A DNA stretch of 64,000 nt from NCBI GenBank assembly GCA_018223105.1, contig JAAEYY010000001.1, positions 20,476 through 84,475 of the forward strand. The letters are read 5' to 3'. Both the position numbers and the translations under genes were made by a program. The stretch comes from a bacterium (GTDB taxonomy: Bacteria; Bacteroidota; Bacteroidia; NS11-12g; UBA9320). Positions 26,715 to 58,064 of the stretch are shown piece after piece; position 1 is the stretch's first letter; each line of letters opens with the position of its first letter. The notes under the pieces are model-generated. The model did not search any database, was not told where the DNA came from, and saw nothing but the letters and a program-made list of their open reading frames with translations.

Positions 26715-26877
26715 TATGTTACGATTTGCACTTATTTTACTTGTTATCGCTCTAGTAGCCGCATTATTTGGTTTCGGAGGAATTGCTGCAGCTGCAGCTG
26801 GATTTGCCAAAACTGTATTTTGGATTGCAATTATCCTCGCAGTTTTATCCTTTCTCGTGAACCTAATTAGGGGCTAG
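26715..26877 (+). pseudogene. DUF1328/UPF0391 (YtjA-like) small membrane protein gene with an apparent +1 frameshift in a T5 homopolymer
   Basis: ATG 26715 encodes MLRFALILLVIALVAALFGFGGIAAAAAGFAKTVF, a strong match to E. coli YtjA. After the run ttttt (about 26816..26821) the conserved hydrophobic C-terminus WIAIILAVLSFLVNLIRG* continues only in the +1 frame. The in-frame reading ends after a garbled tail (LDCNYPRSFILSREPN*). Confidence 0.55.
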
Positions 26878-26910
26878 AAATTTAAAAGTAAAACACTACA
26901 AGATTAGACT

Positions 26911-27537
26911 ATGAAGAAAACACTATTATTTGCCTTGTGCTTTATCGGCACAATAAGTTTGAAAGCTCAAGTAGAGACTTCAATAGGTTTCAAAGGGGGA
27001 CCTGCATTTAACACCTTTAGCGGTTCTGAGTTAGAAACCGCAACTTGGGGGACGGGAATTACCGCCGGGGGCTTTATTAATTTAGGTCTGGCTGATGTTG
27101 CTCAATTTCAGTTTGAACTCCTCTATGATAGACTACCCGGTACGTATGGAATAGACAGTGGTGCATTCAAATCAACTGTATCCTACTTCAGTACTCCATT
27201 GCTTTTCAAATTGAGATTTCCCTTTAATGAAAAAGCGATACCATATGTAAGTATAGGACAATCCGTAGGATATAAGTTGGGAGAAAATACCTATAGAAAT
27301 GGAGTTAATGATGACGGAACTAGTGTAGATCAAGATCATTTTATAAATTATAACCTGGCCAGCCTTTTTGGAATTGGAGTGGATTTTGAGACAGACTTAG
27401 TATTTTTTAATGTAGACCTTAGATACATTAGAGGTAACATTAATGTTTCCACTCAAGATTATAATATGAGAACAAATGCTATTGGACTCACAGCCGGGCT
27501 CGGTTTTAAACTCGTGAAGAACGGGTCGAGCAAATAG
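26911..27537 (+). CDS. Outer-membrane beta-barrel protein (porin-family / OmpA-like barrel)
   Basis: Signal peptide, eight or more amphipathic beta-strands, and a C-terminal GLGFKL-type terminal strand. Confidence 0.7.
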   Translation: MKKTLLFALCFIGTISLKAQVETSIGFKGGPAFNTFSGSELETATWGTGITAGGFINLGLADVAQFQFELLYDRLPGTYGIDSGAFKSTVSYFSTPLLFKLRFPFNEKAIPYVSIGQSVGYKLGENTYRNGVNDDGTSVDQDHFINYNLASLFGIGVDFETDLVFFNVDLRYIRGNINVSTQDYNMRTNAIGLTAGLGFKLVKNGSSK

Positions 27538-27602
27538 GGCGTTAAGAATTTATACAAAGCGGGGATTGTAGTGAGGAATTGCTGCCTTCCTTTTTTAAAA
27601 AC

Positions 27603-27878
27603 ATGACACATATGAATAAAACAACAGAAACAATTTTAGGAGTAGTAGCCGGTGCCGTAGTAGGAGGTGCTTTAGGAGTACTTTTTGCGCCGGATTCAGG
27701 TGAAAACACAAGACAAAAAATCAAAGACAAGAGTTCAGATTTGATGGATGAATTGAATGGTTTGAAAACAAAACTTGGAGCTGAACTTTCGAAAGCTGCT
27801 TCAAGCGAGAAAGAACGTATTCGAGGATACATCAAAGAAATTGACAGCTACTTAAAAGATTTAGAAGCTGAAGCATAA
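27603..27878 (+). CDS. YtxH-domain (DUF948) general-stress-type protein
   Basis: ILGVVAGAVVGGALGVLFAPDSGENTRQKI, followed by a coiled-coil, is typical of the YtxH family. Start trimmed to ATG 27603. Confidence 0.7.
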   Translation: MTHMNKTTETILGVVAGAVVGGALGVLFAPDSGENTRQKIKDKSSDLMDELNGLKTKLGAELSKAASSEKERIRGYIKEIDSYLKDLEAEA

Positions 27879-27879
27879 T

Positions 27880-28203
27880 ATGTTTAAGCTATTAAAAATT
27901 CTAGTAGGTTTAAGGCTGAAAAAGTTCAAATACAGAGCGGCAGATAGAGCTGCGTCATTTTTGACGCATCTCTTAATTTATCTGCTGGCTATTGTAGCGA
28001 TGGCTATTTTCAGCCTTTCACTGCTGGTTTCAGTTGCTATTGTAGCAGGTGTCTTTTTCAACAGTTGGTATGTAGGCGTTGTTGTATTTTTAGGGTTATT
28101 TCTATTGATTGCTCTAATATTGATTCTACTTCAGAGATCTGCATTGTTTATCCCTATTAAAAGGAAGATTATGCACATCTGGATTGAGTCTAACTACGAT
28201 TAA
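27880..28203 (+). CDS. Small two-TM membrane protein (holin-X-like family often paired with YtxH)
   Basis: 107 aa with two long hydrophobic helices, directly downstream of the YtxH gene. No phage genes nearby. Confidence 0.5.
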   Translation: MFKLLKILVGLRLKKFKYRAADRAASFLTHLLIYLLAIVAMAIFSLSLLVSVAIVAGVFFNSWYVGVVVFLGLFLLIALILILLQRSALFIPIKRKIMHIWIESNYD

Positions 28204-47252: not shown

Positions 47253-47867
47253 TTAAAACCAGCCTATCTTTAAGTTGAACCCATAGTTCAGGCCGGTTAA
47301 TGCATTCTCGTGTTCTTCATTGCTGATAGGAGTGGTCATCATGTAGCGAGCTGTTACCCCAAATCTCATGAACTTGGTGAGACTTAATTCTACATTAACC
47401 GCAGGCTCGGCAAACAGATAATTCTCATAATTTCTTCGGTAGGTTCCGTAGTTACCGAATATCTCATCGTTGAAGGATGAAGTCCCCGCACCAATGAGGA
47501 TAGGAAAGGTGACATGAATAGGCTTCGCAGGGAATAGAATAGGTTCAATCAATAAACCTCCGTAACCTCCTTCTAGGTAGTGACCAGAATCCGGGTAGAC
47601 CATGCTTAAATCATTGGAGTATCCAAATCCCCCAACACCAATGCTGAGTCTGTGATTAAATACTGCTGCGGCATAGCCTCCGGCTTTTAAAAATACAGCC
47701 TGATCCAGTTGATTTGAAGTGGCCATAGAGAAGGCGGCATATCCACCGAGTCGGGAGTCTTTTCCCATCAATGTTTGAAGTTCTTCTTTTTGAGTTTCTG
47801 TATCAGCTTGAGCAAAGGTGAAAATGCTTATAACTGAAAGAAACATAGATAAAATAGTTTTTTGCAT
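47253..47867 (-). CDS. Secreted hypothetical beta-rich protein, last gene of ECF-sigma operon
   Basis: Start trimmed to ATG 47867 (MQKTILSMFLSVISIFTFAQA). Gly/aromatic-rich. Confidence 0.5.
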   Translation of the reverse strand: MQKTILSMFLSVISIFTFAQADTETQKEELQTLMGKDSRLGGYAAFSMATSNQLDQAVFLKAGGYAAAVFNHRLSIGVGGFGYSNDLSMVYPDSGHYLEGGYGGLLIEPILFPAKPIHVTFPILIGAGTSSFNDEIFGNYGTYRRNYENYLFAEPAVNVELSLTKFMRFGVTARYMMTTPISNEEHENALTGLNYGFNLKIGWF

Positions 47868-47917
47868 GTGGTTTGTTTTCTTATAGTTACAAGCAAAATT
47901 TTGCAGGGTTGCAGCGA

Positions 47918-48985
47918 TCAACTTTTATTTAGCGAAATTGTGCTGTGATCCCCGTTGATATAGAGTTTTTTAGTAGATGAACCGGCTCCTACTTTACCTT
48001 CAATATGAAAGGAATTGCCATTTATTGAGCCCAAACCCGGAGTGATAATAAGGTCTAACTCTTCTCCTATACCATCTACCTCAAAATTGCAGCCGGGCTC
48101 AAAAGAAAGGTCCACGGTGCTTCTACTTGGACGAATTGTGATGGTATTACAGCTTGCATTGATGTTTTCCAATCTCAATTTTCCATACTTAAGACTGATA
48201 TCTATTTGTTTAGTCAAACCGTTAATCTCAAACTTGCTTAAGCTGGAATTAATATTGGCTTCTCCCAAATTGTCAATTTCAACTTTGTCTCGAGTTGAGA
48301 TCATTTGCAGTTTCTTGATCTCATTAATTTCAAGTGTAGAAGCTTTGGACTCGATCTTTAGGTCTCCTGCTTTACCTAAATCTAATTCTCCAAAGCTTAA
48401 ATCAATCCTACTATCGCCAAGCTCTTTGATGTAAGCATTGACGAAACTAAGTGAAGCAAAACCCAGCTTAGTTATTTTTCCGGCTCTTAAATCCCCGTGA
48501 TCCATATCTAAACTCAGCTCACCTAAATAATCGTTGAGATAAACATTGCCAAACTCATGTTGAATGTTAAGCTTACAAGTACTAGGTAGCCAAATCTTGT
48601 AATTGACCTTGATTTCTTCACCGCTGTAACCTGCTATGTTTTTTATGTTTTTCCATTCTTGTGAGAGGAAATTTTCGTCTATATGAGTACTGATATCTGC
48701 ATAATCAGCATTGAGTCGAGTTATGATATGGGTTCGAGTCATCATCTCCTCGAGTTTACTCAGGTTTTTAGAGCTGCCTTCTATGTTGACCCTGATTCTT
48801 ATGCTGTCTTTAGCCCAGGATGTGATTTGCACCGCACCGTGCTTGCTGTTAATGCTCACTCGGGCATCTTTGTTTATTAGGGCATCTTTCTCTATCCGTT
48901 TTTTATCGGTGAACTGACCGTAGCTGAAGTAAGTCAGCGTAAGGAAGAGTAATAGAAAGCTGCTTAATTTATAGCGATATTGCAT
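47918..48985 (-). CDS. DUF4097-type beta-helix 'putative adhesin' protein
   Basis: Signal peptide, then repetitive beta-strand repeats (e.g. LSLDMDHGDLRAG, IDLSFGELDLG). Sits in an ECF operon. Confidence 0.6.
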   Translation of the reverse strand: MQYRYKLSSFLLLFLTLTYFSYGQFTDKKRIEKDALINKDARVSINSKHGAVQITSWAKDSIRIRVNIEGSSKNLSKLEEMMTRTHIITRLNADYADISTHIDENFLSQEWKNIKNIAGYSGEEIKVNYKIWLPSTCKLNIQHEFGNVYLNDYLGELSLDMDHGDLRAGKITKLGFASLSFVNAYIKELGDSRIDLSFGELDLGKAGDLKIESKASTLEINEIKKLQMISTRDKVEIDNLGEANINSSLSKFEINGLTKQIDISLKYGKLRLENINASCNTITIRPSRSTVDLSFEPGCNFEVDGIGEELDLIITPGLGSINGNSFHIEGKVGAGSSTKKLYINGDHSTISLNKS

Positions 48986-49526
48986 TTTCTTTATTTTTAA
49001 TTTCTTGTTCTTCGTTAATTTCTCGAATCATCGAAAGCACATCTTCCAGCACTTCCAAACGCATTCTATAAGTTTGGATGAGTTCCTGAAGTATAGCTTC
49101 GTTGTTTACATCATTTTTAAGCTCATCAAACAGCCTCAACTTTTCCGCTTGAAGTATGTCAAGTTCTTCCTGGACGTCGGCGGTAAGTTCTTTGTCTACC
49201 CCTTCGGTTTGATCCAGCTCTTGCATAGCAGATACTACTTGCGCTTCGTAGTAGCGGTCCATTTCAGCAATTTCTGCAGGAAGTTGACTTTCTTCTGTTT
49301 TTACAACTTCAGGTTCAGATTTAAACATGGAATAGACTCCAAATGCAGCTAAACCGATGATAAGAATAGCGGCAACTTGCTGAAGTCGAGGCATCCATTG
49401 GATAATTCTCGTTTTCTTAGGCTTTCTCTTTTCTTTGATCTTGTCCCAAGCACCCGCAGGTACTTCAGAACGATCGAAATCTTCCCTGTTGTTGCGAACA
49501 AATTTTTCAAACTGATCTTCTTGCAT
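48969..49526 (-). CDS. Putative anti-sigma factor (single central TM helix)
   Basis: One TM helix (VAAILIIGLAAFGVYSMF) and a position immediately downstream of the ECF sigma gene. The start is uncertain and overlaps the sigma gene. Confidence 0.5.
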   Translation of the reverse strand: MQEDQFEKFVRNNREDFDRSEVPAGAWDKIKEKRKPKKTRIIQWMPRLQQVAAILIIGLAAFGVYSMFKSEPEVVKTEESQLPAEIAEMDRYYEAQVVSAMQELDQTEGVDKELTADVQEELDILQAEKLRLFDELKNDVNNEAILQELIQTYRMRLEVLEDVLSMIREINEEQEIKNKENAISL

Positions 49527-50076
49527 GGCGATTCTGTTTAATGAGTTCTTTAAGTTTAGCTTTTGCCCTTGAATATTGGGATTTTGAGGTGGAGGTGCTG
49601 ATTCCCAGGATCTCAGCAATTTCTCCATGATCATATCCTTCTATTAAGTACAAGCTGAAAATTTCTCTATAACCATCAGGCAATTGCATCATTGCTCGAT
49701 GTATTTCCTCTACCGAATGATTAGTGCCTTCTTCATCCGGACTCTCATCCGTAATGGCATATGCGTGCACGTCTTCATCCAGCGAATAGTCAATACTTCG
49801 TTTGTTCTGATGATTAATACTTAAGTTGATTGCGATTCGCTTAGACCAAGTATAAAAACTATACTGATCTGAATAGGTATGAATCTTACTGAAAATATTG
49901 ACGAAGGTGTCTTGTAAAAGGTCTTCGGCAACTTCAGCGCGACCCACTATTCTCAAGCAACTGTTATACAGTGCTTTGGAATAGCGCGTATAAAGTTCGA
50001 ATTCTGCCCGGGAGTCTCCTTTTTTACAGGCTTCAATCAGCTCTATATGTGAACCTTGCTTTGCGATAGCGATCAA
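49507..50076 (-). CDS. RNA polymerase ECF-type sigma-70 factor
   Basis: Region 2 (LLQDTFVNIF...YSFYTW) and region 4 HTH (IFSLYLIEGYDHGEIAEILGIS.STSKSQ.SRA). Confidence 0.85.
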   Translation of the reverse strand: MIAIAKQGSHIELIEACKKGDSRAEFELYTRYSKALYNSCLRIVGRAEVAEDLLQDTFVNIFSKIHTYSDQYSFYTWSKRIAINLSINHQNKRSIDYSLDEDVHAYAITDESPDEEGTNHSVEEIHRAMMQLPDGYREIFSLYLIEGYDHGEIAEILGISTSTSKSQYSRAKAKLKELIKQNRHARRSV

Positions 50077-50124: not shown

Positions 50125-53100
50125 TTAAATCACGAGATTTACGATTCTACCCGGTACAACGATGATTTTCTTGGGTGCTTTTCCTTCCAACCATTTCTGA
50201 ACTACCTCATCTTCCAAGACTTTTTCAGAGATTGTATTTTTATCCATGTCGAGCGGAAACTCAATTTGAGTTCGGGTTTTACCGTTGATCGAGATAGGAT
50301 ATAGTTTCACACTTTCTACAAGCTGTGACTCATCGTATTCCGGCCATTGTGCATTTAAAATACTTTCAGTATTGCCGAGTTTCTCCCATAACTCTTCGCT
50401 AATATGTGGAGCGAAAGGTGAAAGGAGAATAAGCAATGGCTCGATGATGGATTTGCTTTTGCAGTTCTGTGAACTAAGTTCATTAACGCAGATCATAAAC
50501 TGACTCACAGAGGTGTTGAACGAGAATTGTTCAATATCATCACTTACCTTTTTTATGGTTTTATGAAGCGATTTTAGTGAATCTTTAGAAGGAGTTTCAT
50601 CTGTGATCAAGAAATTACCATCCTGGTCGAAGCAGAGGTTCCAAAGTTTTTTAAGAAAACGGTGGGTTCCATCGATTCCCTGCGTACTCCATGGTTTTGA
50701 ATCTTGCAGTGGTCCGAGGAACATTTCGTATAGTCTCAAGGTATCCGCTCCGTATTCGTCGCAGACATCGTCGGGGTTTACCACGTTACCCCAACGTTTG
50801 GACATTTTTTCAGTGATGATTCCAGCTTGAAAATAGTTTTTATGTACTTCCGTAGATTCCTCATGATATTCAATAATCTCATTTGCTTCAGATAAGTCAA
50901 AAATTGAGGTGTTTTCAGGAAGATTGTACTTGTTTTCCTTCAGGAATAATTCAAAATTCACTGAACCATTTTTATCTACAAATTCCAAGGGAATTCTAAT
51001 GACTTCAATCGGGTCAAGATCAGATGGTATCTGTGGGTGTAGACTGCCAGAAATCTCATTGTTAGTTACTTTATACTTTTTATACTTCTTCAAAAAGATT
51101 TCTTCAAATTTCAATTTAACAAAATCTTGATTAGATGCATTTTGCAAGAACTGGGCAAGTTTTCCAGTTAATAATACCCTTCCAAAAACTTCATTAGGGT
51201 CTGGAAATGATGGGTTATCACCCCAAAATGAACCAGAAAAACTAAGTCTAATAAAGTTAATCACCCTACTTTGCCCCTGAATCATCCCTTGATTAATCAA
51301 CTTCTTAAAAGGCTCATCGAAATCAATTCTGCCGAGATCGTATAAAAATTTGGTCCAGAATCTACTGTATAACAAGTGTCCGGTAGCATGCTCGGCTCCA
51401 CCCATATAAAGATCTACCTGATTCCAATATTTTAGTTTCTCAGGCGACGCAAAGGCCTCATCATTATTTGGATCCATGTACCGCAAGAAGTACCAACTAC
51501 TTCCGGCCCAACCCGGCATGGTGTCGGTTTCTCTTCTGCCTTCCGGAGTATTTACCCAGTCTTCAACTCGGGCTAATGGACTCTCACCGGTTCCGGCAGG
51601 TTCGTAAGATTGCACATCTGGCAATGTTACCGGAAGTTCATCAACTAAACTCGGAATACCATCCTTATGGAGAATAGGGAAGGGTTCTCCCCAGTATCTC
51701 TGACGGCTAAAGCCTGCATCTCTCAATTTGTAATTAATGGTTCGGGTGCCAAAGCCTTTTTCTTCTGCGAATTGAATGGTAGCGCGGATGGCATTTTTAA
51801 CATCCAGACCATTGATCATTTCAGAGTTGATCATTCTGCCTTCTTTGGCATCATAACTAGCTTCTTGAATATTTACTGACTCCTTGCCTTCAACAACTTG
51901 AACTATATTCAAATTGTATTTCTTGGCGAAAGCATGATCTCGTTCATCGTGAGCCGGAACGGCCATAATAGCTCCGGTTCCATATCCCGCAAGGACATAC
52001 TCCGCAATGTAGATCGGAATTTCTTTTTGGTTGAAAGGGTTGATGGCATAAGCGCCGGTGAAACAGCCGCTCACTTCTTTGTTCATCATTCTTTCACGCT
52101 CACTTTTACTTTGAGCTCTATCGATATACGCTTGAACGGCTTCTTTTTCAGAATCTGTGCTTATGCTCGATATTAATTCATGCTCAGGTGCCAGTACCAT
52201 GAAGCTCGCTCCAAAAACAGTATCGGGACGAGTGGTGAAAACTTCGATGTCTGCAGCACTGCCTTTTACTTTGAAATGAAGACTAGCACCTTCGGATTTA
52301 CCAATCCAGTTTCTTTGAATTTCTTTGATGGACTCAGACCATTCAATTTTGTTCAAACCATCGAGTAGACGATCCGCGTAAGCGGTAATTCTCAAATACC
52401 ACTGCGACATTTTTTTCTGAATTACATCGTATCCTCCGCGTTCAGATTTGCCGTCTTTTACTTCTTCATTGGCCAAAACAGTTCCAAGCTCCGGACACCA
52501 GTTTACGCTGGTTTCTTTTTGAAAAGCGAGTCGGTAACACTGAAGAATATTTTCTTTTTCTTGAGCGCTGAAGTTTTCCCAGTCTTCACCGGTGAATGAT
52601 TCGCATGGATCACCGTGATATTCAATGTTGACATTCCCTTCAATTTCGAAAATGCTAATGAGTTGATCTATAGATTCTGCCTTATTGGTTTTCTTATTGT
52701 ACCAAGCATTGAAGAATTCAGAAAAGATCCATTGCGTCCATTTGTAATAGGAGGGATCGCAGGTTTGCACTTCCCGAGACCAATCAAAAGCAAAACCAAT
52801 GCGGTTAAGTTGTTCTTTATATCGCTTGATGTTTGCCTCGGTGGTGATGGCAGGGTGCTTGCCGGTTTGGATTGCATACTGCTCTGCAGGGAGTCCGAAT
52901 GCGTCAAACCCCATAGGGTGAAGCACGTTGAATCCATTGAGTCTTTTGTAGCGAGTTACGATATCGGAAGCGATGTATCCTAAAGGGTGTCCAACATGTA
53001 AACCCGCCCCGGAAGGGTAGGGAAACATGTCGAGGACATAGTATTTCTGTTTAGAATCATCCTCGGTGACTTTGAAAAGTTCATTCGACTTCCAGTGCTC

Positions 53101-53142
53101 TTGCCACTTTTGCTCGATGTTTTTGAAATTGTATATACCCAT
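50125..53142 (-). CDS. leuS: Leucine--tRNA ligase LeuS
   Basis: HIGH motif (PYPSGAGLHVGH) and KMSKS motif (KMSKRWGN). 1005 aa with a large insertion, typical of Bacteroidota LeuS. Confidence 0.95.
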   Translation of the reverse strand: MGIYNFKNIEQKWQEHWKSNELFKVTEDDSKQKYYVLDMFPYPSGAGLHVGHPLGYIASDIVTRYKRLNGFNVLHPMGFDAFGLPAEQYAIQTGKHPAITTEANIKRYKEQLNRIGFAFDWSREVQTCDPSYYKWTQWIFSEFFNAWYNKKTNKAESIDQLISIFEIEGNVNIEYHGDPCESFTGEDWENFSAQEKENILQCYRLAFQKETSVNWCPELGTVLANEEVKDGKSERGGYDVIQKKMSQWYLRITAYADRLLDGLNKIEWSESIKEIQRNWIGKSEGASLHFKVKGSAADIEVFTTRPDTVFGASFMVLAPEHELISSISTDSEKEAVQAYIDRAQSKSERERMMNKEVSGCFTGAYAINPFNQKEIPIYIAEYVLAGYGTGAIMAVPAHDERDHAFAKKYNLNIVQVVEGKESVNIQEASYDAKEGRMINSEMINGLDVKNAIRATIQFAEEKGFGTRTINYKLRDAGFSRQRYWGEPFPILHKDGIPSLVDELPVTLPDVQSYEPAGTGESPLARVEDWVNTPEGRRETDTMPGWAGSSWYFLRYMDPNNDEAFASPEKLKYWNQVDLYMGGAEHATGHLLYSRFWTKFLYDLGRIDFDEPFKKLINQGMIQGQSRVINFIRLSFSGSFWGDNPSFPDPNEVFGRVLLTGKLAQFLQNASNQDFVKLKFEEIFLKKYKKYKVTNNEISGSLHPQIPSDLDPIEVIRIPLEFVDKNGSVNFELFLKENKYNLPENTSIFDLSEANEIIEYHEESTEVHKNYFQAGIITEKMSKRWGNVVNPDDVCDEYGADTLRLYEMFLGPLQDSKPWSTQGIDGTHRFLKKLWNLCFDQDGNFLITDETPSKDSLKSLHKTIKKVSDDIEQFSFNTSVSQFMICVNELSSQNCKSKSIIEPLLILLSPFAPHISEELWEKLGNTESILNAQWPEYDESQLVESVKLYPISINGKTRTQIEFPLDMDKNTISEKVLEDEVVQKWLEGKAPKKIIVVPGRIVNLVI

Positions 53143-53222
53143 TGCAGTATGAGCGGCAAAGGTATTTTGGTTTAGTTAATAATGAAACCACTGCGTGGAA
53201 ATTACAAATGTCAAGCACCAAA

Positions 53223-53246
53223 TTCCAGAAAAGATCCAAAAAACAA
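53223..53246. repeat. Direct repeat copy 1 (24 bp) ttccagaaaagatccaaaaaacaa
   Basis: An identical 24-mer recurs at 53414..53437, 191 bp downstream. Both copies lie in the leuS-uppP non-coding region. Confidence 0.8.
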
Positions 53247-53342
53247 GTACCAAGTTCCAAGGAAATTCCAAATTTCAAATCCCAGCAAATACTCAAATTT
53301 TAAAGGATCAAAGTTCAAATTGAGTATTAATGGATTTTATAT

Positions 53343-53359
53343 CAGGGTCTCTCAGAGGA
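53343..53359. repeat. Left arm of long-range inverted repeat cagggtctctcagagga
   Basis: Its reverse complement matches 53567..53585 (tcctctgcgagagaccctg) at 17/19 with a 2-nt insertion. The two arms flank about 200 bp. Confidence 0.75.
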
Positions 53360-53394
53360 TCCCTAACTGCACGCGAGAAATTAGAAAATACAAT

Positions 53395-53408
53395 CCGCCA
53401 GCTGGCGG
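53395..53408. repeat. Perfect 14-bp palindrome CCGCCAGCTGGCGG
   Basis: The sequence is its own reverse complement. It sits 5 bp upstream of direct-repeat copy 2. Confidence 0.8.
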
Positions 53409-53413
53409 ACAGG

Positions 53414-53437
53414 TTCCAGAAAAGATCCAAAAAACAA
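53414..53437. repeat. Direct repeat copy 2 (24 bp) ttccagaaaagatccaaaaaacaa
   Basis: Identical to 53223..53246. Confidence 0.8.
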
Positions 53438-53566
53438 AGGTTCAAAGTTTCTTAATTACGAATGTAGAAATACGAATGGTTGATTGTTGATGCCTGAATA
53501 AGATGCCGTTTAAAATTATGCATGATGTTTATTAAGTGTCGCTTTTCATTGTAAAGTCCGTCAAGG

Positions 53567-53585
53567 TCCTCTGCGAGAGACCCTG
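53567..53585. repeat. Right arm of long-range inverted repeat
   Basis: tcctctgcgagagaccctg is complementary to 53343..53359. Confidence 0.75.
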
Positions 53586-53612
53586 ACAGTAGATTACTCT
53601 AAAATTCAACAA

Positions 53613-53668
53613 CTCTACACTCTACACTCGTCATTCGTCACCCGTCATTCTACACTCCACATTCGTCT
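53613..53668. repeat. Tandem heptanucleotide array, 8 units (consensus about YTCKWCA: ctctaca ctctaca ctcgtca ttcgtca cccgtca ttctaca ctccaca ttcgtct)
   Basis: The 7-bp periodicity was read directly from the sequence. It lies about 65 bp upstream of the DUF3098/uppP operon start. Confidence 0.75.
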
Positions 53669-53732
53669 GATTTTTGCAGATTTCTGCTTTAGAAATCAAT
53701 TTTAATTATACTTGCAAAGTAATTCAGTAATC

Positions 53733-53990
53733 ATGGCCAAGAATAAGCAAACAAAGAAGACAAGCACTAGCGAAAATTCTCAAAACTATTTTGTTTTTGG
53801 AAAGAAGAATTATCGCTTGATGGTGATTGGTATTGCAATCATTGCAGTAGGTTTTGCTTTGATGTACGGTAAAGAAGATATCTACGACTTTAGAAAAACA
53901 ACCCTGGCTCCGATTGTAGTAATCGCCGGATTTGTGGTAGAAGTCTTTGCTATTCTTACTAAGCCTGAAGCTGAAAATGAGTCTAATTGA
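53733..53990 (+). CDS. DUF3098-type small membrane protein (conserved upstream partner of uppP in Bacteroidota)
   Basis: Start trimmed to ATG 53733 (MAKNKQTKK...). Two TM helices. Overlaps the uppP start. Confidence 0.55.
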   Translation: MAKNKQTKKTSTSENSQNYFVFGKKNYRLMVIGIAIIAVGFALMYGKEDIYDFRKTTLAPIVVIAGFVVEVFAILTKPEAENESN

Positions 53991-54780
53991 GGCTATCATC
54001 CTGGGCATCATCCAGGGTCTTACAGAATTTCTTCCGGTTAGTAGCAGTGGACATATTGAACTTGGGAAAGCCTTGTTTGATATCAATGCTGAAGAAAATG
54101 CCGGTTTGCTATTTACCATCGTCCTTCATTTCGCCACAGCTTTAAGCACCATTGTCGTTTTCAGAAAAGATATAAGCGAAATTTTCAAAGGCCTGCTTCA
54201 ATTCAAATGGAATGAAGAGTTTCAATTTTCAATAAAAATCATTCTTTCCATGATTCCTTCCGTACTCGTGGGGCTCTTATTGGAAGAAGAAATTGAACAG
54301 TTCTTCGATGGTAAGATTCTATTTGTTTGTGTAATGCTCCTTCTTACGGGAATTGTACTCTTTATTTCCGATAAAGTAAAAGGGGAGGGAGGTCAGGTTG
54401 ACTATAAAAAATCAGTAGGACTCGGCATAGTTCAAGCGATTGCAATACTTCCGGGGATCTCCAGAAGCGGTTCTACTATTGCAGCTGCATTGCTTATGAA
54501 TGTCTCAAGAGAGCGCGCAGCTAGATTTAGCTTTTTAATGGTATTGCCTCTTATTTTGGGGGTAACTGCCAAGAAAATGTTAGATTTAGGTGATGAAGGT
54601 GGAACTACAGGTATGGAAATAGATTGGCTGATTCTAGGAGTAGGCTTTCTAGCGGCCTTTATTTCCGGTTGGTTTGCCTGCAAATGGATGCTGAAAATCG
54701 TAAAAAAAGCAAAGCTAACATACTTCGCTATTTACTGCTGGTTGGTAGGAACCATTGGAATTGTTCTGAGCTTAGTTTAA
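53977..54780 (+). CDS. uppP: Undecaprenyl-diphosphatase UppP/BacA
   Basis: MSLIEAIILGIIQGLTEFLPVSSSGHI and the downstream PGISRSG motif. 267 aa. Confidence 0.9.
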   Translation: MSLIEAIILGIIQGLTEFLPVSSSGHIELGKALFDINAEENAGLLFTIVLHFATALSTIVVFRKDISEIFKGLLQFKWNEEFQFSIKIILSMIPSVLVGLLLEEEIEQFFDGKILFVCVMLLLTGIVLFISDKVKGEGGQVDYKKSVGLGIVQAIAILPGISRSGSTIAAALLMNVSRERAARFSFLMVLPLILGVTAKKMLDLGDEGGTTGMEIDWLILGVGFLAAFISGWFACKWMLKIVKKAKLTYFAIYCWLVGTIGIVLSLV

Positions 54781-55164
54781 GCTGTATTCCGGCTGTAAGT
54801 GAAATAGAGGGATCTCTACATCAAACTGCTCACGTGTTTCAAGATCAATAAAGGTGTAGTAACCCGACATCTCGCCAATTTCTGAAATCAGCGGACACCA
54901 ACTCTCGTAAGCGTATGCTGCACCCGATTCTAAAATGGGCTGTTTCCCTATAACTCCTGCTCCTTCAACGGTTCTTTTACCCGCCAGAGAATCTAAAATA
55001 GTCCAATGTCTTCTAAGAAGTTGAACGGCATGGTTACTTAAATTTTCAATCTTGATTCGGTAAGCATAAATGAAGTTTGCCCCTTGGAGGTCGCTTTGTT
55101 CTTCCTCCAATCTGGCTTTCACCTGAACCCGAATTTGTTTAGATATATCTGAAAGATTCGTCAT
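54772..55164 (-). CDS. apaG: ApaG-domain protein (DUF525)
   Basis: Start trimmed to ATG 55164, giving 130 aa. ApaG-like pattern YAYRIKIEN...VQLLRRHWTILD...GAGVIGKQP.L..G..Y.Y.S. Confidence 0.7.
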   Translation of the reverse strand: MTNLSDISKQIRVQVKARLEEEQSDLQGANFIYAYRIKIENLSNHAVQLLRRHWTILDSLAGKRTVEGAGVIGKQPILESGAAYAYESWCPLISEIGEMSGYYTFIDLETREQFDVEIPLFHLQPEYSLN

Positions 55165-55247: not shown

Positions 55248-55853
55248 TTGAGCACATCATCCAATCTTATAAATAAAGCCGTAGAGCAACTTTCTCAATT
55301 TCCGGGGGTAGGGAAGAGAAGTGCCTTGCGCATGGTCCTGAATTTACTAAAACGGCCGGAGGGTGAAACCTTAGAGTTGGCGAGGGCTTTAGAGCGCATG
55401 AGGCTGGATATTAGATTTTGTGAGCAATGCTTCAATCTCAGTGATGATCACCTCTGTAGTGTTTGTAAATCGCCTTCCAGGGATGAGCATACTATCTGTA
55501 TTGTAAAAGACTTTCAAGATGTGATTGCGATAGAGAATACGGCGCAGTACAATGGGCAATATCACGTTTTGGGGGGCTTAATATCTCCTGTGGAGGGTAT
55601 AGGACCTCAAGATATCAAAATTCCACAGCTTATAGATAGAATTAAGGAGAAGGAAGTTAATGAAATTATTCTCGCTCTAAGTAGCACGATGGAAGGAGAT
55701 ACTACTGAGTTTTACATCGCTCGAAAAGTAACCGAAATGGGAGTAAAGGTGAGTACCCTGTCAAAAGGTATTTCTGTTGGAGGCGAGCTGGAATACACCG
55801 ACGAGATTTCCTTGGCTCGTTCTATCAAGAATAGAATCGAAATGAAAGATTAA
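55248..55853 (+). CDS. recR: Recombination protein RecR
   Basis: HhH region (LSQFPGVGKRSALRM), C4 zinc finger (CEQCFNL...CSVC), and a Toprim domain. Confidence 0.9.
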   Translation: MSTSSNLINKAVEQLSQFPGVGKRSALRMVLNLLKRPEGETLELARALERMRLDIRFCEQCFNLSDDHLCSVCKSPSRDEHTICIVKDFQDVIAIENTAQYNGQYHVLGGLISPVEGIGPQDIKIPQLIDRIKEKEVNEIILALSSTMEGDTTEFYIARKVTEMGVKVSTLSKGISVGGELEYTDEISLARSIKNRIEMKD

Positions 55854-56668
55854 GGCTTCCAGCAATCGTGTTGGTAGTTATACTCAATTACATCAGACCA
55901 ATGATCTTCGGTCACAATTTTAGCAATAGCAGAATCGCTATTCAGCGAGTAGTTATATTTAAGATACCAACTGCTGGGGTTCGGTCCTAATCCGTAGTTC
56001 TGATGAATGGGGTTGTTTTCGGAGTATAACAGAAAATCCTCTATCTCAATAGGGTTATCGTACAATAAAGGTATCCATCCGGTAAAGAAATTTGTGGTGT
56101 CGTCGTACTCATCATAATTATGCCATTCTAACAATTTAGTTGAATCATATTGCTCTATTCGTGATACGTTCATTCCGGAATATTCTACTTTGAATACGAT
56201 ATCACGGTTAATGCCATTTTCGATGAGTCTAACCTCAGTAACCTTCTCATTAGCATACTTGAACGTGTAGACATAGTGATTTGTGTCTTCGCCCTCAACT
56301 TCATAGAGATCTAGTTTATTCGCTAAATCTCCATTGTACATTACCGTACTCCAGAGCTTGTCATCAGTACGAGTCTCGGTTACTCTTCCTTCGGCATCAT
56401 AGGTGTAAGTTGTTTTATCTCCGGCATCTTCAGATTGATTTGAAGAATAATAGAGATCATGCAAAAAATAGATTCGATTCACTAATACTCCTGAAGAGTC
56501 ATAGTTGAATAATTCGGTGAAATTATAGCTAGAGTCTGCGTCTCTTGACTCGAGTTGAACAATTCTGCAAATGGGTTCAGGTTCAACCGGAAGTGGTTTC
56601 TGATTTTTACTCAGGCATGCCTGTAAAACAAGAAAACAAAGTACAAGAATGAGAGAATTATTAGTCAT
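55850..56668 (-). CDS. Lipoprotein with YD-repeat-like motifs (paralog-like of the 7743..8555 protein)
   Basis: Start trimmed to ATG 56668 (MTNNSLILVLCFLVLQACLSKN), which has a lipobox. YTYDAEGRVTETR and FNYDSSGVLVNRIYF motifs. Confidence 0.55.
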   Translation of the reverse strand: MTNNSLILVLCFLVLQACLSKNQKPLPVEPEPICRIVQLESRDADSSYNFTELFNYDSSGVLVNRIYFLHDLYYSSNQSEDAGDKTTYTYDAEGRVTETRTDDKLWSTVMYNGDLANKLDLYEVEGEDTNHYVYTFKYANEKVTEVRLIENGINRDIVFKVEYSGMNVSRIEQYDSTKLLEWHNYDEYDDTTNFFTGWIPLLYDNPIEIEDFLLYSENNPIHQNYGLGPNPSSWYLKYNYSLNSDSAIAKIVTEDHWSDVIEYNYQHDCWKP

Positions 56669-56708
56669 ATCGCCTTTAGCGAATATACCAATTTCTTCGT
56701 GTTTTTGT

Positions 56709-58064
56709 TTAATCCTCTTTCTTGTTGTTAGGATTACGCGGTCCTTTTCTCTTGTTAGGTCTGCGCTTTTTATTTGGGTTTGGACCTTTGTTTTCAGACT
56801 TTGGATTATCCTGATTTCGGTTCTGTTGAGGCTTTCTATTTGAGTTGCCTTTTCTCTTTTTAGCACCACCTTGCTGTTTAGGATCCCCTTGTTGTTTTGG
56901 GTCTCCGGGTCTTGAACCACCTTTCTTGCCTTTGAAATTTCTCTTTTTATTTGGACGCTTTTTCTTGTGCTTGTGGTCCATTCGATTGAGATCGGTCTCT
57001 TCGAGAAGATCGTCTCGATATTCCATTGTCTTGTTCAGGATTTCTGAACCTTGAGCTGAGTCACTTAATGTCGCAGGAGTTTTTCCCTGTTTATTTTGAG
57101 CGATAATCTCATTTACTCTATCTAGCTTAATAGGAATCCAGTCGTAACTGTTGGCATAGCAATACCAGAGGGTTTTCTTAAGTATATCTGTCTTTCTCAA
57201 ACTAGCTTCTCCTGCTTCAGTTTTGAGTTTAAGATCTTCCGAAGGAAAATCTTCCAAAGCTTCAGAATACAATTCCAGTTCGTAGTTTAAGCAGCATTTT
57301 AACCTTCCACATTGTCCTGAAAGTTTTAACATATTGATAGACAAATTCTGAGTCTTAGCCGCACTCATGGTTACAACTTTGTAGTCGGTCAACCATGTAC
57401 TACAACACAATTCTCTACCACAACTGCCAATCCCGCCAAGTCTAGATGCTTCTTCTCTGTAGCTCACCTGACGCATTTCGATTCGCGCTCGGAATTCCGA
57501 TGCGTATCGTTTAATCAACTCTCTAAAGTCGACCCTGCCTTCTGATGTATAGTAGAAAGTGACCTTTTTGCCATCACCCTGAAACTCAATATCGCTAATC
57601 TTCATCTGAAGATTCATCTTCATTGCGATTGTTCGCGCTCTTTCTAGAGTTTTGGGTTCTTTATCCTTAAAGTCTTGGTATTTTTTAAGTTCTTTCTCAT
57701 CGGCAATGCGAAGCACTTTGCGCATTTCATCGCTGTCTTCATCTACGCCGTATTTTTTTAATTGAAGCTTAACTAGTTCTCCTGAAAGAGAGATTTCACC
57801 TAAATCATAGCCGTAATCAGACTCAACTATAACTTTGTCTCCGGTAAATAATTCCAGGTTTTCCGTGTTTCGGAAGAAGAGTTTTTTACTTCCTTTGAAG
57901 CGCACTTCAACGATGTTGAAGGGTTTATAATCCTCCGGCAACACCATGTCGGTGAGCCAGTTATATACATTTAATTTATTACAACTTCCGGTACTGCATC
58001 CTCCATTGTTCTGGCAACCCGGACTATGACTTCCATTGTTCTTGCCGCAACTTTCACATCCCAT
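56709..58064 (-). CDS. PSP1-domain protein (RicT/YaaT homolog) with Cys-rich N-terminal extension and long basic Lys/Pro/Asn-rich C-terminal tail
   Basis: Central PSP1 C-terminal-domain region (GSCGRELCCSTWL...SGQCGRLKCCLNYE). The N-terminus has five Cys in 28 aa. The tail contains two PGDPKQQG repeats. It lies adjacent to holB, as in Firmicutes. Confidence 0.75.
   Translation of the reverse strand: MGCESCGKNNGSHSPGCQNNGGCSTGSCNKLNVYNWLTDMVLPEDYKPFNIVEVRFKGSKKLFFRNTENLELFTGDKVIVESDYGYDLGEISLSGELVKLQLKKYGVDEDSDEMRKVLRIADEKELKKYQDFKDKEPKTLERARTIAMKMNLQMKISDIEFQGDGKKVTFYYTSEGRVDFRELIKRYASEFRARIEMRQVSYREEASRLGGIGSCGRELCCSTWLTDYKVVTMSAAKTQNLSINMLKLSGQCGRLKCCLNYELELYSEALEDFPSEDLKLKTEAGEASLRKTDILKKTLWYCYANSYDWIPIKLDRVNEIIAQNKQGKTPATLSDSAQGSEILNKTMEYRDDLLEETDLNRMDHKHKKKRPNKKRNFKGKKGGSRPGDPKQQGDPKQQGGAKKRKGNSNRKPQQNRNQDNPKSENKGPNPNKKRRPNKRKGPRNPNNKKED

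Follow-up and report, generated by a model that had tools for sequence, protein, structure and literature searches.

The region considered here is the spacer between leuS, which lies on the minus strand and starts at 53142, and the DUF3098-uppP genes, of which DUF3098 starts at 53733, in a window of 64,000 nucleotides of contig JAAEYY010000001.1 (assembly GCA_018223105.1; all coordinates are window positions). Besides several other repeats, this spacer carries an inverted pair of short sequences that are probably relics of repetitive extragenic palindromes (REPs), a kind of hairpin associated with REP-associated tyrosine transposases (RAYTs). The source organism is a Bacteroidota metagenome-assembled genome with 39% GC, and among 185,579 species representatives the LeuS closest to its own shares only 73% identity. 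The leuS/DUF3098 gap is the longest real intergenic gap of the window, because the other apparent long gaps hold small open reading frames (ORFs), and when it is set, by a rough measure, against the leuS upstream spaces of 76 Bacteroidota species, it ranks near the 95th percentile. One of these other stretches, 26716-28203, appears as a long gap at a 120-aa ORF cut-off, yet small membrane-protein ORFs lie inside it, encoding 53 aa (26716-26877), a glycine-rich product of 99 aa (27579-27878) and 107 aa (27880-28203).

The leuS/DUF3098 gap is non-coding and lies outside the known Rfam families. Its 102-aa ORF (53182-53490) gave no Pfam match, matched no record exactly, lacked homologues in a set of 5.8 billion proteins and was rejected as a gene on these grounds, as the first-pass annotation of the sequence had anticipated; the remaining small ORFs of the gap are random-looking. 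Rfam returned nothing at the gathering threshold over the whole window, and when covariance models were searched on 53000-53900 at E-values up to 10, no credible match appeared, the hits being chance-level only (E of 0.33 or above, to eukaryotic long non-coding RNA and small nucleolar RNA models). A scan for tRNA and tmRNA genes gave no match. The five repeat features that the first-pass annotation had listed are all present, with coordinates within 1-2 nt of those given there, and the palindrome, reported as a 14-mer, has a perfect core of 16 nt that includes it. The positions of these and other features are collected in Table 1.

Table 1. Sequence features of the leuS/DUF3098 spacer and its downstream flank, in window coordinates.
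Feature	Position	Strand	Remarks
Putative leuS core promoter, -7 box TACCTTTG	53157..53164	-	TAnnTTTG motif scan (Bacteroidota type)
A-rich degenerate repeat tract	53195..53340	+	Tandem Repeats Finder period 32, 2.4 copies; contains duplication copy 1
24-bp exact direct repeat, copy 1	53223..53246	+	Duplication reaches ~53256
Left arm, probable decayed REP copy	53342..53366	+	Loop GC deleted, 3' half mutated, 5' tag missing
Palindrome, 16-nt perfect core 53394-53409 (TCCGCCAGCTGGCGGA)	53393..53410	-	Hairpin followed by TTGTATTTTCT
24-bp exact direct repeat, copy 2	53414..53437	+	Duplication reaches ~53449; within the REP pair
Inverted heptamer-like segment ACGAATGTAGAAATACGAATG	53456..53478	+	Complementary to array units; inverted repeats I4, I8
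Right arm, near-consensus REP hairpin TCAGGGTCTCTCGCAGAGGACCtTGA	53561..53586	-	25/26 consensus positions, without 5' YGTCC
Heptamer array, eight tandem units	53612..53667	+	65-120 nt upstream of the DUF3098 ATG
Possible DUF3098-uppP -7 box TATACTTG	53707..53714	+	Relaxed scan, one mismatch to TAnnTTTG
uppP/BacA	53947-54780		Downstream of DUF3098

The spacer was compared with three relatives (loci L082, L083 and L085), which were retrieved via the DUF3098 protein and are about 70% identical at the DNA level. They have in common the gene order RRM protein, hypothetical protein, FAA hydrolase, leuS, DUF3098, uppP, recR, PSP1, holB and YfhO. In all three, leuS and DUF3098-uppP are divergent with a spacing of merely 122-143 bp, and therefore some 430-450 bp of the spacer are lineage-specific here, which agrees with the earlier remark that the region is unusually long. 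Conservation at this locus in related genomes, considered by the first-pass annotation, was not found: the extra DNA is missing from the relatives, and BLASTN of the spacer against 80 Bacteroidota leuS loci revealed no conservation. On the leuS side the DNA alignment with L083 and L085 ends at 53164, and on the opposite side the alignment with a further locus, L084, the sole one extending upstream of the DUF3098 ATG, begins at 53695. The -7 box on the leuS side, situated 15 nt upstream of the leuS ATG and with a homologous CAAAG(C/G)TA in L083 and L082, is likely to be the leuS core promoter, and the one-mismatch box on the other side is a possible -7 box of DUF3098-uppP. Taken with the alignment limits, these boxes place both predicted core promoters close to their genes. 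A scan for promoters of the sigma-70 type, which is the wrong type for Bacteroidota, gave no excess over shuffled expectation.

The inverted repeat within the extra DNA consists of a perfect 12-nt core (53342-53353 and 53575-53586), followed by a 2-nt bulge and 6-7 nt of further pairing. BLAST of the right arm matched dozens of metagenome copies, and a profile of 117 copies of this repeat family, run with nhmmer on the 64-kb window, recovered the right arm (53586 to 53561, minus strand) with E = 8.8e-9 and the left arm (53341 to 53361, plus strand) with E = 1.3e-3 and nothing beyond these two. Folded as single-stranded DNA, the right arm reaches -8.2 kcal/mol (z = -3.8), in comparison with -12.2 kcal/mol (z = -5.2) for the family consensus; folding of the left arm is lost (-2.1 kcal/mol, z = 0.18). 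The plus-minus orientation of the window pair is the preferred one in the family.

The family itself was characterized by scanning metagenome contigs of the JGI with the arm pattern TCAGGGTCTCTC(N0-2)AGAGGA, which yielded at least 120 stretches. Across about 120 metagenome loci from soil and rhizosphere, on contigs of 40-46% GC, the hairpin has at least 188 copies. Its unit of about 34 nt reads (Y)GTCC-CC-TCAGGGTC-TCTCGCAGAG-GACCCTGA-GG or, with the stem-loop spelled out, (Y)GTCC-CC-TCAGGGTC-T-CTC-GCA-GAG-GACCCTGA-GG, which corresponds to a stem of 10 + 3 bp, interrupted by a single-base bulge, and the 3-nt loop GCA. The 3' half CCCTGA, which lies outside the search pattern, occurs in about 120 of the 132 unique copies among the matches listed, and the 5' YGTCC tag in 100-117 of them. 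Likewise among the matches listed, 145 of 156 copies (93%) are intergenic against a non-ORF background of 20%, and copies are about twofold enriched between convergent genes. Neighbouring copies are oriented plus-minus, with their tags outward, in 38 cases and minus-plus in 3; the spans of these doublets peak at 115-135 nt, and a second class of 672-779 nt encloses a gene. The stem covaries: across 50 distinct copies, some of which do not match the search pattern, 95.4% of the cells are paired and 21 double-sided changes were counted, against 4.7 in shuffles, none of the 500 shuffles reaching as high a value. Examples of such changes are CC..GG to CA..TG, TCAGGG..CCCTGA to TCTGGG..CCCAGA and T..A to G..C. 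A scan of viral contigs for the arm pattern produced three chance matches, in which the 3' half is missing; Rfam gave no match on 14 REP-bearing loci, and a full-text literature search for the hairpin sequence found no paper with it in the library covered.

Some individual loci of the family depart from the usual doublet layout. In L119 (1332-1900) and L162 (1-90) the hairpin recurs head-to-tail within a 53-nt unit that is repeated at least 11 times; the unit is made up of the hairpin, with CCCTT at its foot instead of GTCCCC, and a constant 27-nt linker, and the near-identity of the linkers sets the array apart from a CRISPR. L130 (~1768), L145 (~369) and L108 (~174) carry the left hairpin half, broken at the same loop position and continuing into one shared sequence (TCAGGGTCTCT[C/G]GCAGA|TTTAAGTT...), and this breakpoint may represent a recurrent recombination or cleavage junction. 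A complete copy, TCAGGGTCTCTCGAAGAGGACCCTGAGG, is present at ~2100 of L205, a contig of 64% GC, so the motif may reach beyond Bacteroidota.

The link of the family to a transposase comes from loci L103, L163 and L158, where the hairpins bracket an ORF of 190-201 aa with NHVH and YIHHNP motifs. Against NCBIfam NF047646, the model named for the REP-associated tyrosine transposase, these ORFs score 74-88 bits, the cut-off being 80, and they match Pfam Y1_Tnp as well. RAYT homologues also adjoin hairpins in L096, L124, L139, L141, L172 and L197, which brings the loci with a RAYT beside REP copies to 9-10 in total. The closest named homologues are mostly from Mucilaginibacter and otherwise from other Sphingobacteriaceae, and many homologues bear the JGI label 'REP element-mobilizing transposase RayT'. 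RAYTs flanked by the same hairpin show only about 57-60% mutual identity. Hairpins that flank the transposase gene are the defining layout of a REP/RAYT system. In L124 (41-917) REP copies lie within a RAYT gene that has been split and in part duplicated.

For TnpA-REP of E. coli and the REPINs of Pseudomonas it is established that the RAYT recognises such hairpins in single-stranded form, cuts and rejoins them and so spreads them in trans. With the REPs and bacterial interspersed mosaic elements of E. coli and the REPINs of Pseudomonas, the present family shares a short imperfect palindrome in multiple, extragenic copies that mostly form inverted doublets, a covarying stem, and a single Y1/HUH transposase flanked by copies in a REPtron-like manner. 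It differs from them in its tag, which is YGTCC and not GTAG, in its Bacteroidota hosts, and in the stem of 10 + 3 bp with its bulge and 3-nt loop. The window copies depart further from those systems, as they are decayed, tagless and only two in number, enclose an unrelated spacer of 200 bp and have no RAYT within the 64 kb, where tblastn found none. The window pair also lacks the short conserved spacer of a REPIN replicating as one unit, given its span of 245 nt and its dissimilar interior.

A second group of relevance is the CGTC-tagged REP superfamily, whose members carry an unpaired CGTC/TGTC 5' motif, form mostly head-to-head dimers and occur in several phyla including Bacteroidetes (Di Nocera et al., 2013; PMC3733652). 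In families 1-4 of this superfamily the stem measures 8-9 bp and opens with A-T pairs, the loop has 4-5 nt and a CCA tail is present; a transposase of their own was reported to be lacking (PMC3733652). The family described here resembles them in its tag (C/T-GTC) and its head-to-head doublets; it differs in a longer stem starting with C-G, in the GCA loop, in the absence of a CCA tail and in flanking RAYT genes, and it does not fit any of the four described CGTC families. As for the transposase, TnpA-REP subclasses 2.4 and 2.6, accompanied by hairpins on their flanks, have been described from Bacteroidetes (Quentin et al., 2018; PMC6006769), and a REP inside a broken RAYT gene is known from subclass 2.4, a situation similar to that of L124. 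The RAYTs associated with our family resemble these two subclasses in the NHVH (HUH) and YIHHNP motifs, the length of 190-201 aa and the recurring flanking hairpins; the fourth residue of their Y-motif is H, in place of N or Q, and they have F-E at the usual W-Q position.

We therefore favour, with a probability of roughly 70%, an explanation in which a promoter spacer of about 130 bp gained some 430-450 bp of lineage-specific non-coding DNA that includes two fossil RAYT-associated REPs and whose other parts have no dedicated function. An ordinary divergent promoter region would have been swollen in this lineage, and the arms of the inverted repeat would be two copies of a REP family that flanks a RAYT gene at other loci. 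By analogy with E. coli and Pseudomonas, such a RAYT would recognise the single-stranded hairpins, cut and rejoin them, and thus spread them in trans. Both window copies would now be fossils, the right one nearly intact except for its tag and the left one deprived of loop and pairing, and we regard them as incomplete and probably immobile relics. They could stem either from a RAYT resident in another part of the genome or from an imported fragment; for a decayed RAYT gene between the arms there was no tblastn signal. The rest of the extra DNA, namely the duplicated A-rich segment, the palindrome and the heptamer minisatellite, may be the product of slippage or passenger DNA.

Several observations weigh against this explanation. 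The YGTCC tag is missing in both window copies, which have CTACTG (right) and TTTATA (left) in its place, so that the window REPs are incomplete copies. The pair spans 245 nt, more than the gene-free doublets of the family (115-186 nt), and its interior has no similarity to the spacers of family doublets. Only two copies are present within the 64 kb, both in one spacer, and no member of the family occurs in the closest relatives or in 929 kb drawn from 80 other Bacteroidota species. The profile matches quoted above are partly a matter of construction, given that the profile was built from sequences retrieved with the window's own arm. A single further public contig was found for this organism, Logan contig L081 (SRR7663132), which is 100% identical to window 53566-54929 and begins inside the right arm, about 5 nt from its inner edge; therefore this repeat breaks short-read assemblies, and such a break in an independent assembly suits a repeat but would equally suit a rearranging segment. 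Finally, the lack of a dedicated function for the duplication, the palindrome and the heptamers is argued from the absence of homologues.

Regarding these other features, the 24-bp direct repeat occurred as two copies in none of 100 shuffles, and no third copy was found in the window at up to 3 mismatches. The duplication measures 24-45 bp, reaching about 36 nt (89% identity) once gaps are allowed, and copy 1 lies outside and copy 2 inside the REP pair. The A-rich tract around copy 1 has an AT skew of +0.28 and is missing from the relatives. Part of it (53195-53229) is similar to positions 7053-7087 of L191 at 30 of 35 positions, beside a REP copy, which hints at a shared ancestry of the DNA around the window REPs. 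In L191 itself, the segment 7053-7270 consists of a truncated REP copy between two direct repeats of about 75 nt, each of which begins with AAGCACCAAATTC and forms a terminator-like hairpin.

The palindrome scored as terminator-like on the minus strand only (-6.4 kcal/mol, z = -3.5), and there is no obvious transcript for it to stop. The units of the heptamer array are ACTCTAC (twice), ACTCGTC, ATTCGTC, ACCCGTC, ATTCTAC, ACTCCAC and ATTCGTC, which conform to the pattern A[CT][TC]C[TGC][AT]C; this pattern was found nowhere else in the window or in the 1.8 Mb of fetched loci that formed our comparison set, except in L081, a copy of the same locus. When the spacer was searched against all fetched loci by BLASTN and tblastx, the right hairpin alone matched. 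The scan of viral contigs contained no copy of the 24-bp repeat and gave 55 matches to the palindrome and 50 to an A-rich 15-mer, which were not inspected and are, by a rough estimate, at about chance level. Most simply, the duplication, the palindrome and the heptamers are products of local duplication and slippage or DNA that arrived with the repeats; they appear to have no dedicated function, and, being sited between two promoters, could affect them incidentally.

The neighbourhood of the spacer shows further differences from the relatives. LeuS has 1005 aa here and 910-911 aa in L082, L083 and L085, the extra segment of about 94 aa being located just before the KMSKS region (50813-51275, minus strand), with a low GC content (0.31-0.34) and no alignment with the relatives. 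Between the FAA hydrolase and leuS, four minus-strand ORFs occupy 47253-50076, namely an extracytoplasmic function (ECF) sigma factor (49507-50076) and three ORFs without a Pfam match; because the FAA hydrolase and leuS adjoin in the relatives, this block is a second lineage-specific insertion beside leuS. Further downstream of uppP, an extra minus-strand ORF of about 300-356 aa with a weak RHS-repeat match (55850-56920) lies between recR and PSP1, which adjoin in the relatives without it.

Of the alternatives, the one that survives best assigns a role to the heptamers, which together with their inverted partner (53456-53478) would form a cluster of sites at which a regulator, or else an alternative sigma factor, binds to control DUF3098-uppP. 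Eight phased heptamers just upstream of the putative DUF3098 promoter do occupy the position of an activator site; CGTC is found in four of the units after a CAAC at 53607, loosely reminiscent of ECF-type -35 and -10 elements, and an ECF sigma gene is only 3 kb distant. In Firmicutes, genes of the uppP type are ECF-controlled. Against this, the array has no counterpart in the relatives or in the 1.8 Mb of other loci, the pattern AAC-N15-18-CGTC, with 4 occurrences in the window, is about as frequent as expected by chance, no matching motif lies upstream of the ECF sigma gene, the period of 7 nt is not that of the helical repeat, and slippage readily makes short tandem arrays. The transcription-factor array put forward in the first-pass annotation is thus neither supported nor excluded, and we hold it to be unlikely.

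It could also be argued that the segment 53342-53586 is a single miniature inverted-repeat transposable element, or MITE, of 245 bp with terminal inverted repeats, which entered the space between the promoters as one unit. Like bacterial MITEs it is short, non-coding, intergenic and bounded by inverted repeats, an inverted pair of about 20 nt bracketing some 200 bp; moreover, it is lineage-specific and its arms belong to a mobile repeat family. MITEs differ, though, in having target-site duplications and further whole copies: the flanks here, TTTATA and CAGTAG, show no such duplication, neither the interior nor the whole unit recurs within the window or within 1.8 Mb of family-rich loci, each arm is an autonomous palindromic REP unit complete in itself, and the family's doublets are shorter and enclose other spacers. 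Of the MITE-like relic that had been suggested from the sequence, the relic of a mobile repeat stands and the MITE architecture does not, and we consider insertion as one such unit quite improbable.

A structured RNA or a long 5' leader had likewise been proposed. Such an RNA, or such a leader of leuS or uppP, is very unlikely in light of the following; one candidate would be a short RNA read from the minus strand and terminating at the 53410-53393 hairpin. The fold z-score of 53335-53595 (-4.4 on the plus and -3.9 on the minus strand) and the terminator-like site on the minus strand speak for it, but the stability is strand-symmetric and owed to the inverted repeat, z being only -1.2 and -2.1 over the whole spacer, the Rfam searches were negative and the extra DNA is missing from relatives. 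Since both likely core promoters lie near their genes, the middle of the spacer is probably untranscribed.

Lastly, recombination between the REP copies might flip the 200-bp interior with its one-way terminator and so alter read-through toward leuS or uppP, a REP-derived inverton providing phase-variable insulation of leuS from the uppP operon with the heptamers as an accessory binding site, in which case the flipped junctions would read ...TCAGGGTCTCTCGCAGAGGACCTTGACGG... (left) and ...CAGTTAGGGATCCTCTGAGAGACCCTGACAG... (right). The inverted pair, spaced by about 245 bp and placed between divergent promoters in a Bacteroidota genome, recalls the invertons of Bacteroides, the interior holds a predicted terminator hairpin on one strand only, and L081 starts at the inner edge of the right arm; this switch is nevertheless extremely improbable, as the interior has no Bacteroidota-type promoter motif, no recombinase or invertase lies within 10 kb on either side, the arms match the REP family and not a recombinase site, the left arm has decayed to 12 nt of perfect homology, and short-read graphs are expected to break inside a multi-copy palindrome anyway, L081 being merely 1.4 kb long so that breaks are frequent.

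On the explanation we favour, acquisition of lineage-specific DNA with two fossil REPs, the window region would be of little weight in itself, representing a padded promoter spacer and a poor candidate for a riboswitch, a small RNA or a new class of element. Its by-product is a defined Bacteroidota REP family with a YGTCC tag, a covarying bulged hairpin of 13 bp and tags-outward doublets, of which a near-consensus copy is present in a distant Bacteroidia lineage. RAYTs with flanking hairpins are an already known kind in Bacteroidetes (PMC6006769). The family could be used to study how a REP sequence stays constant while its transposases diverge, and it may serve as a marker of assembly breaks in soil metagenomes.

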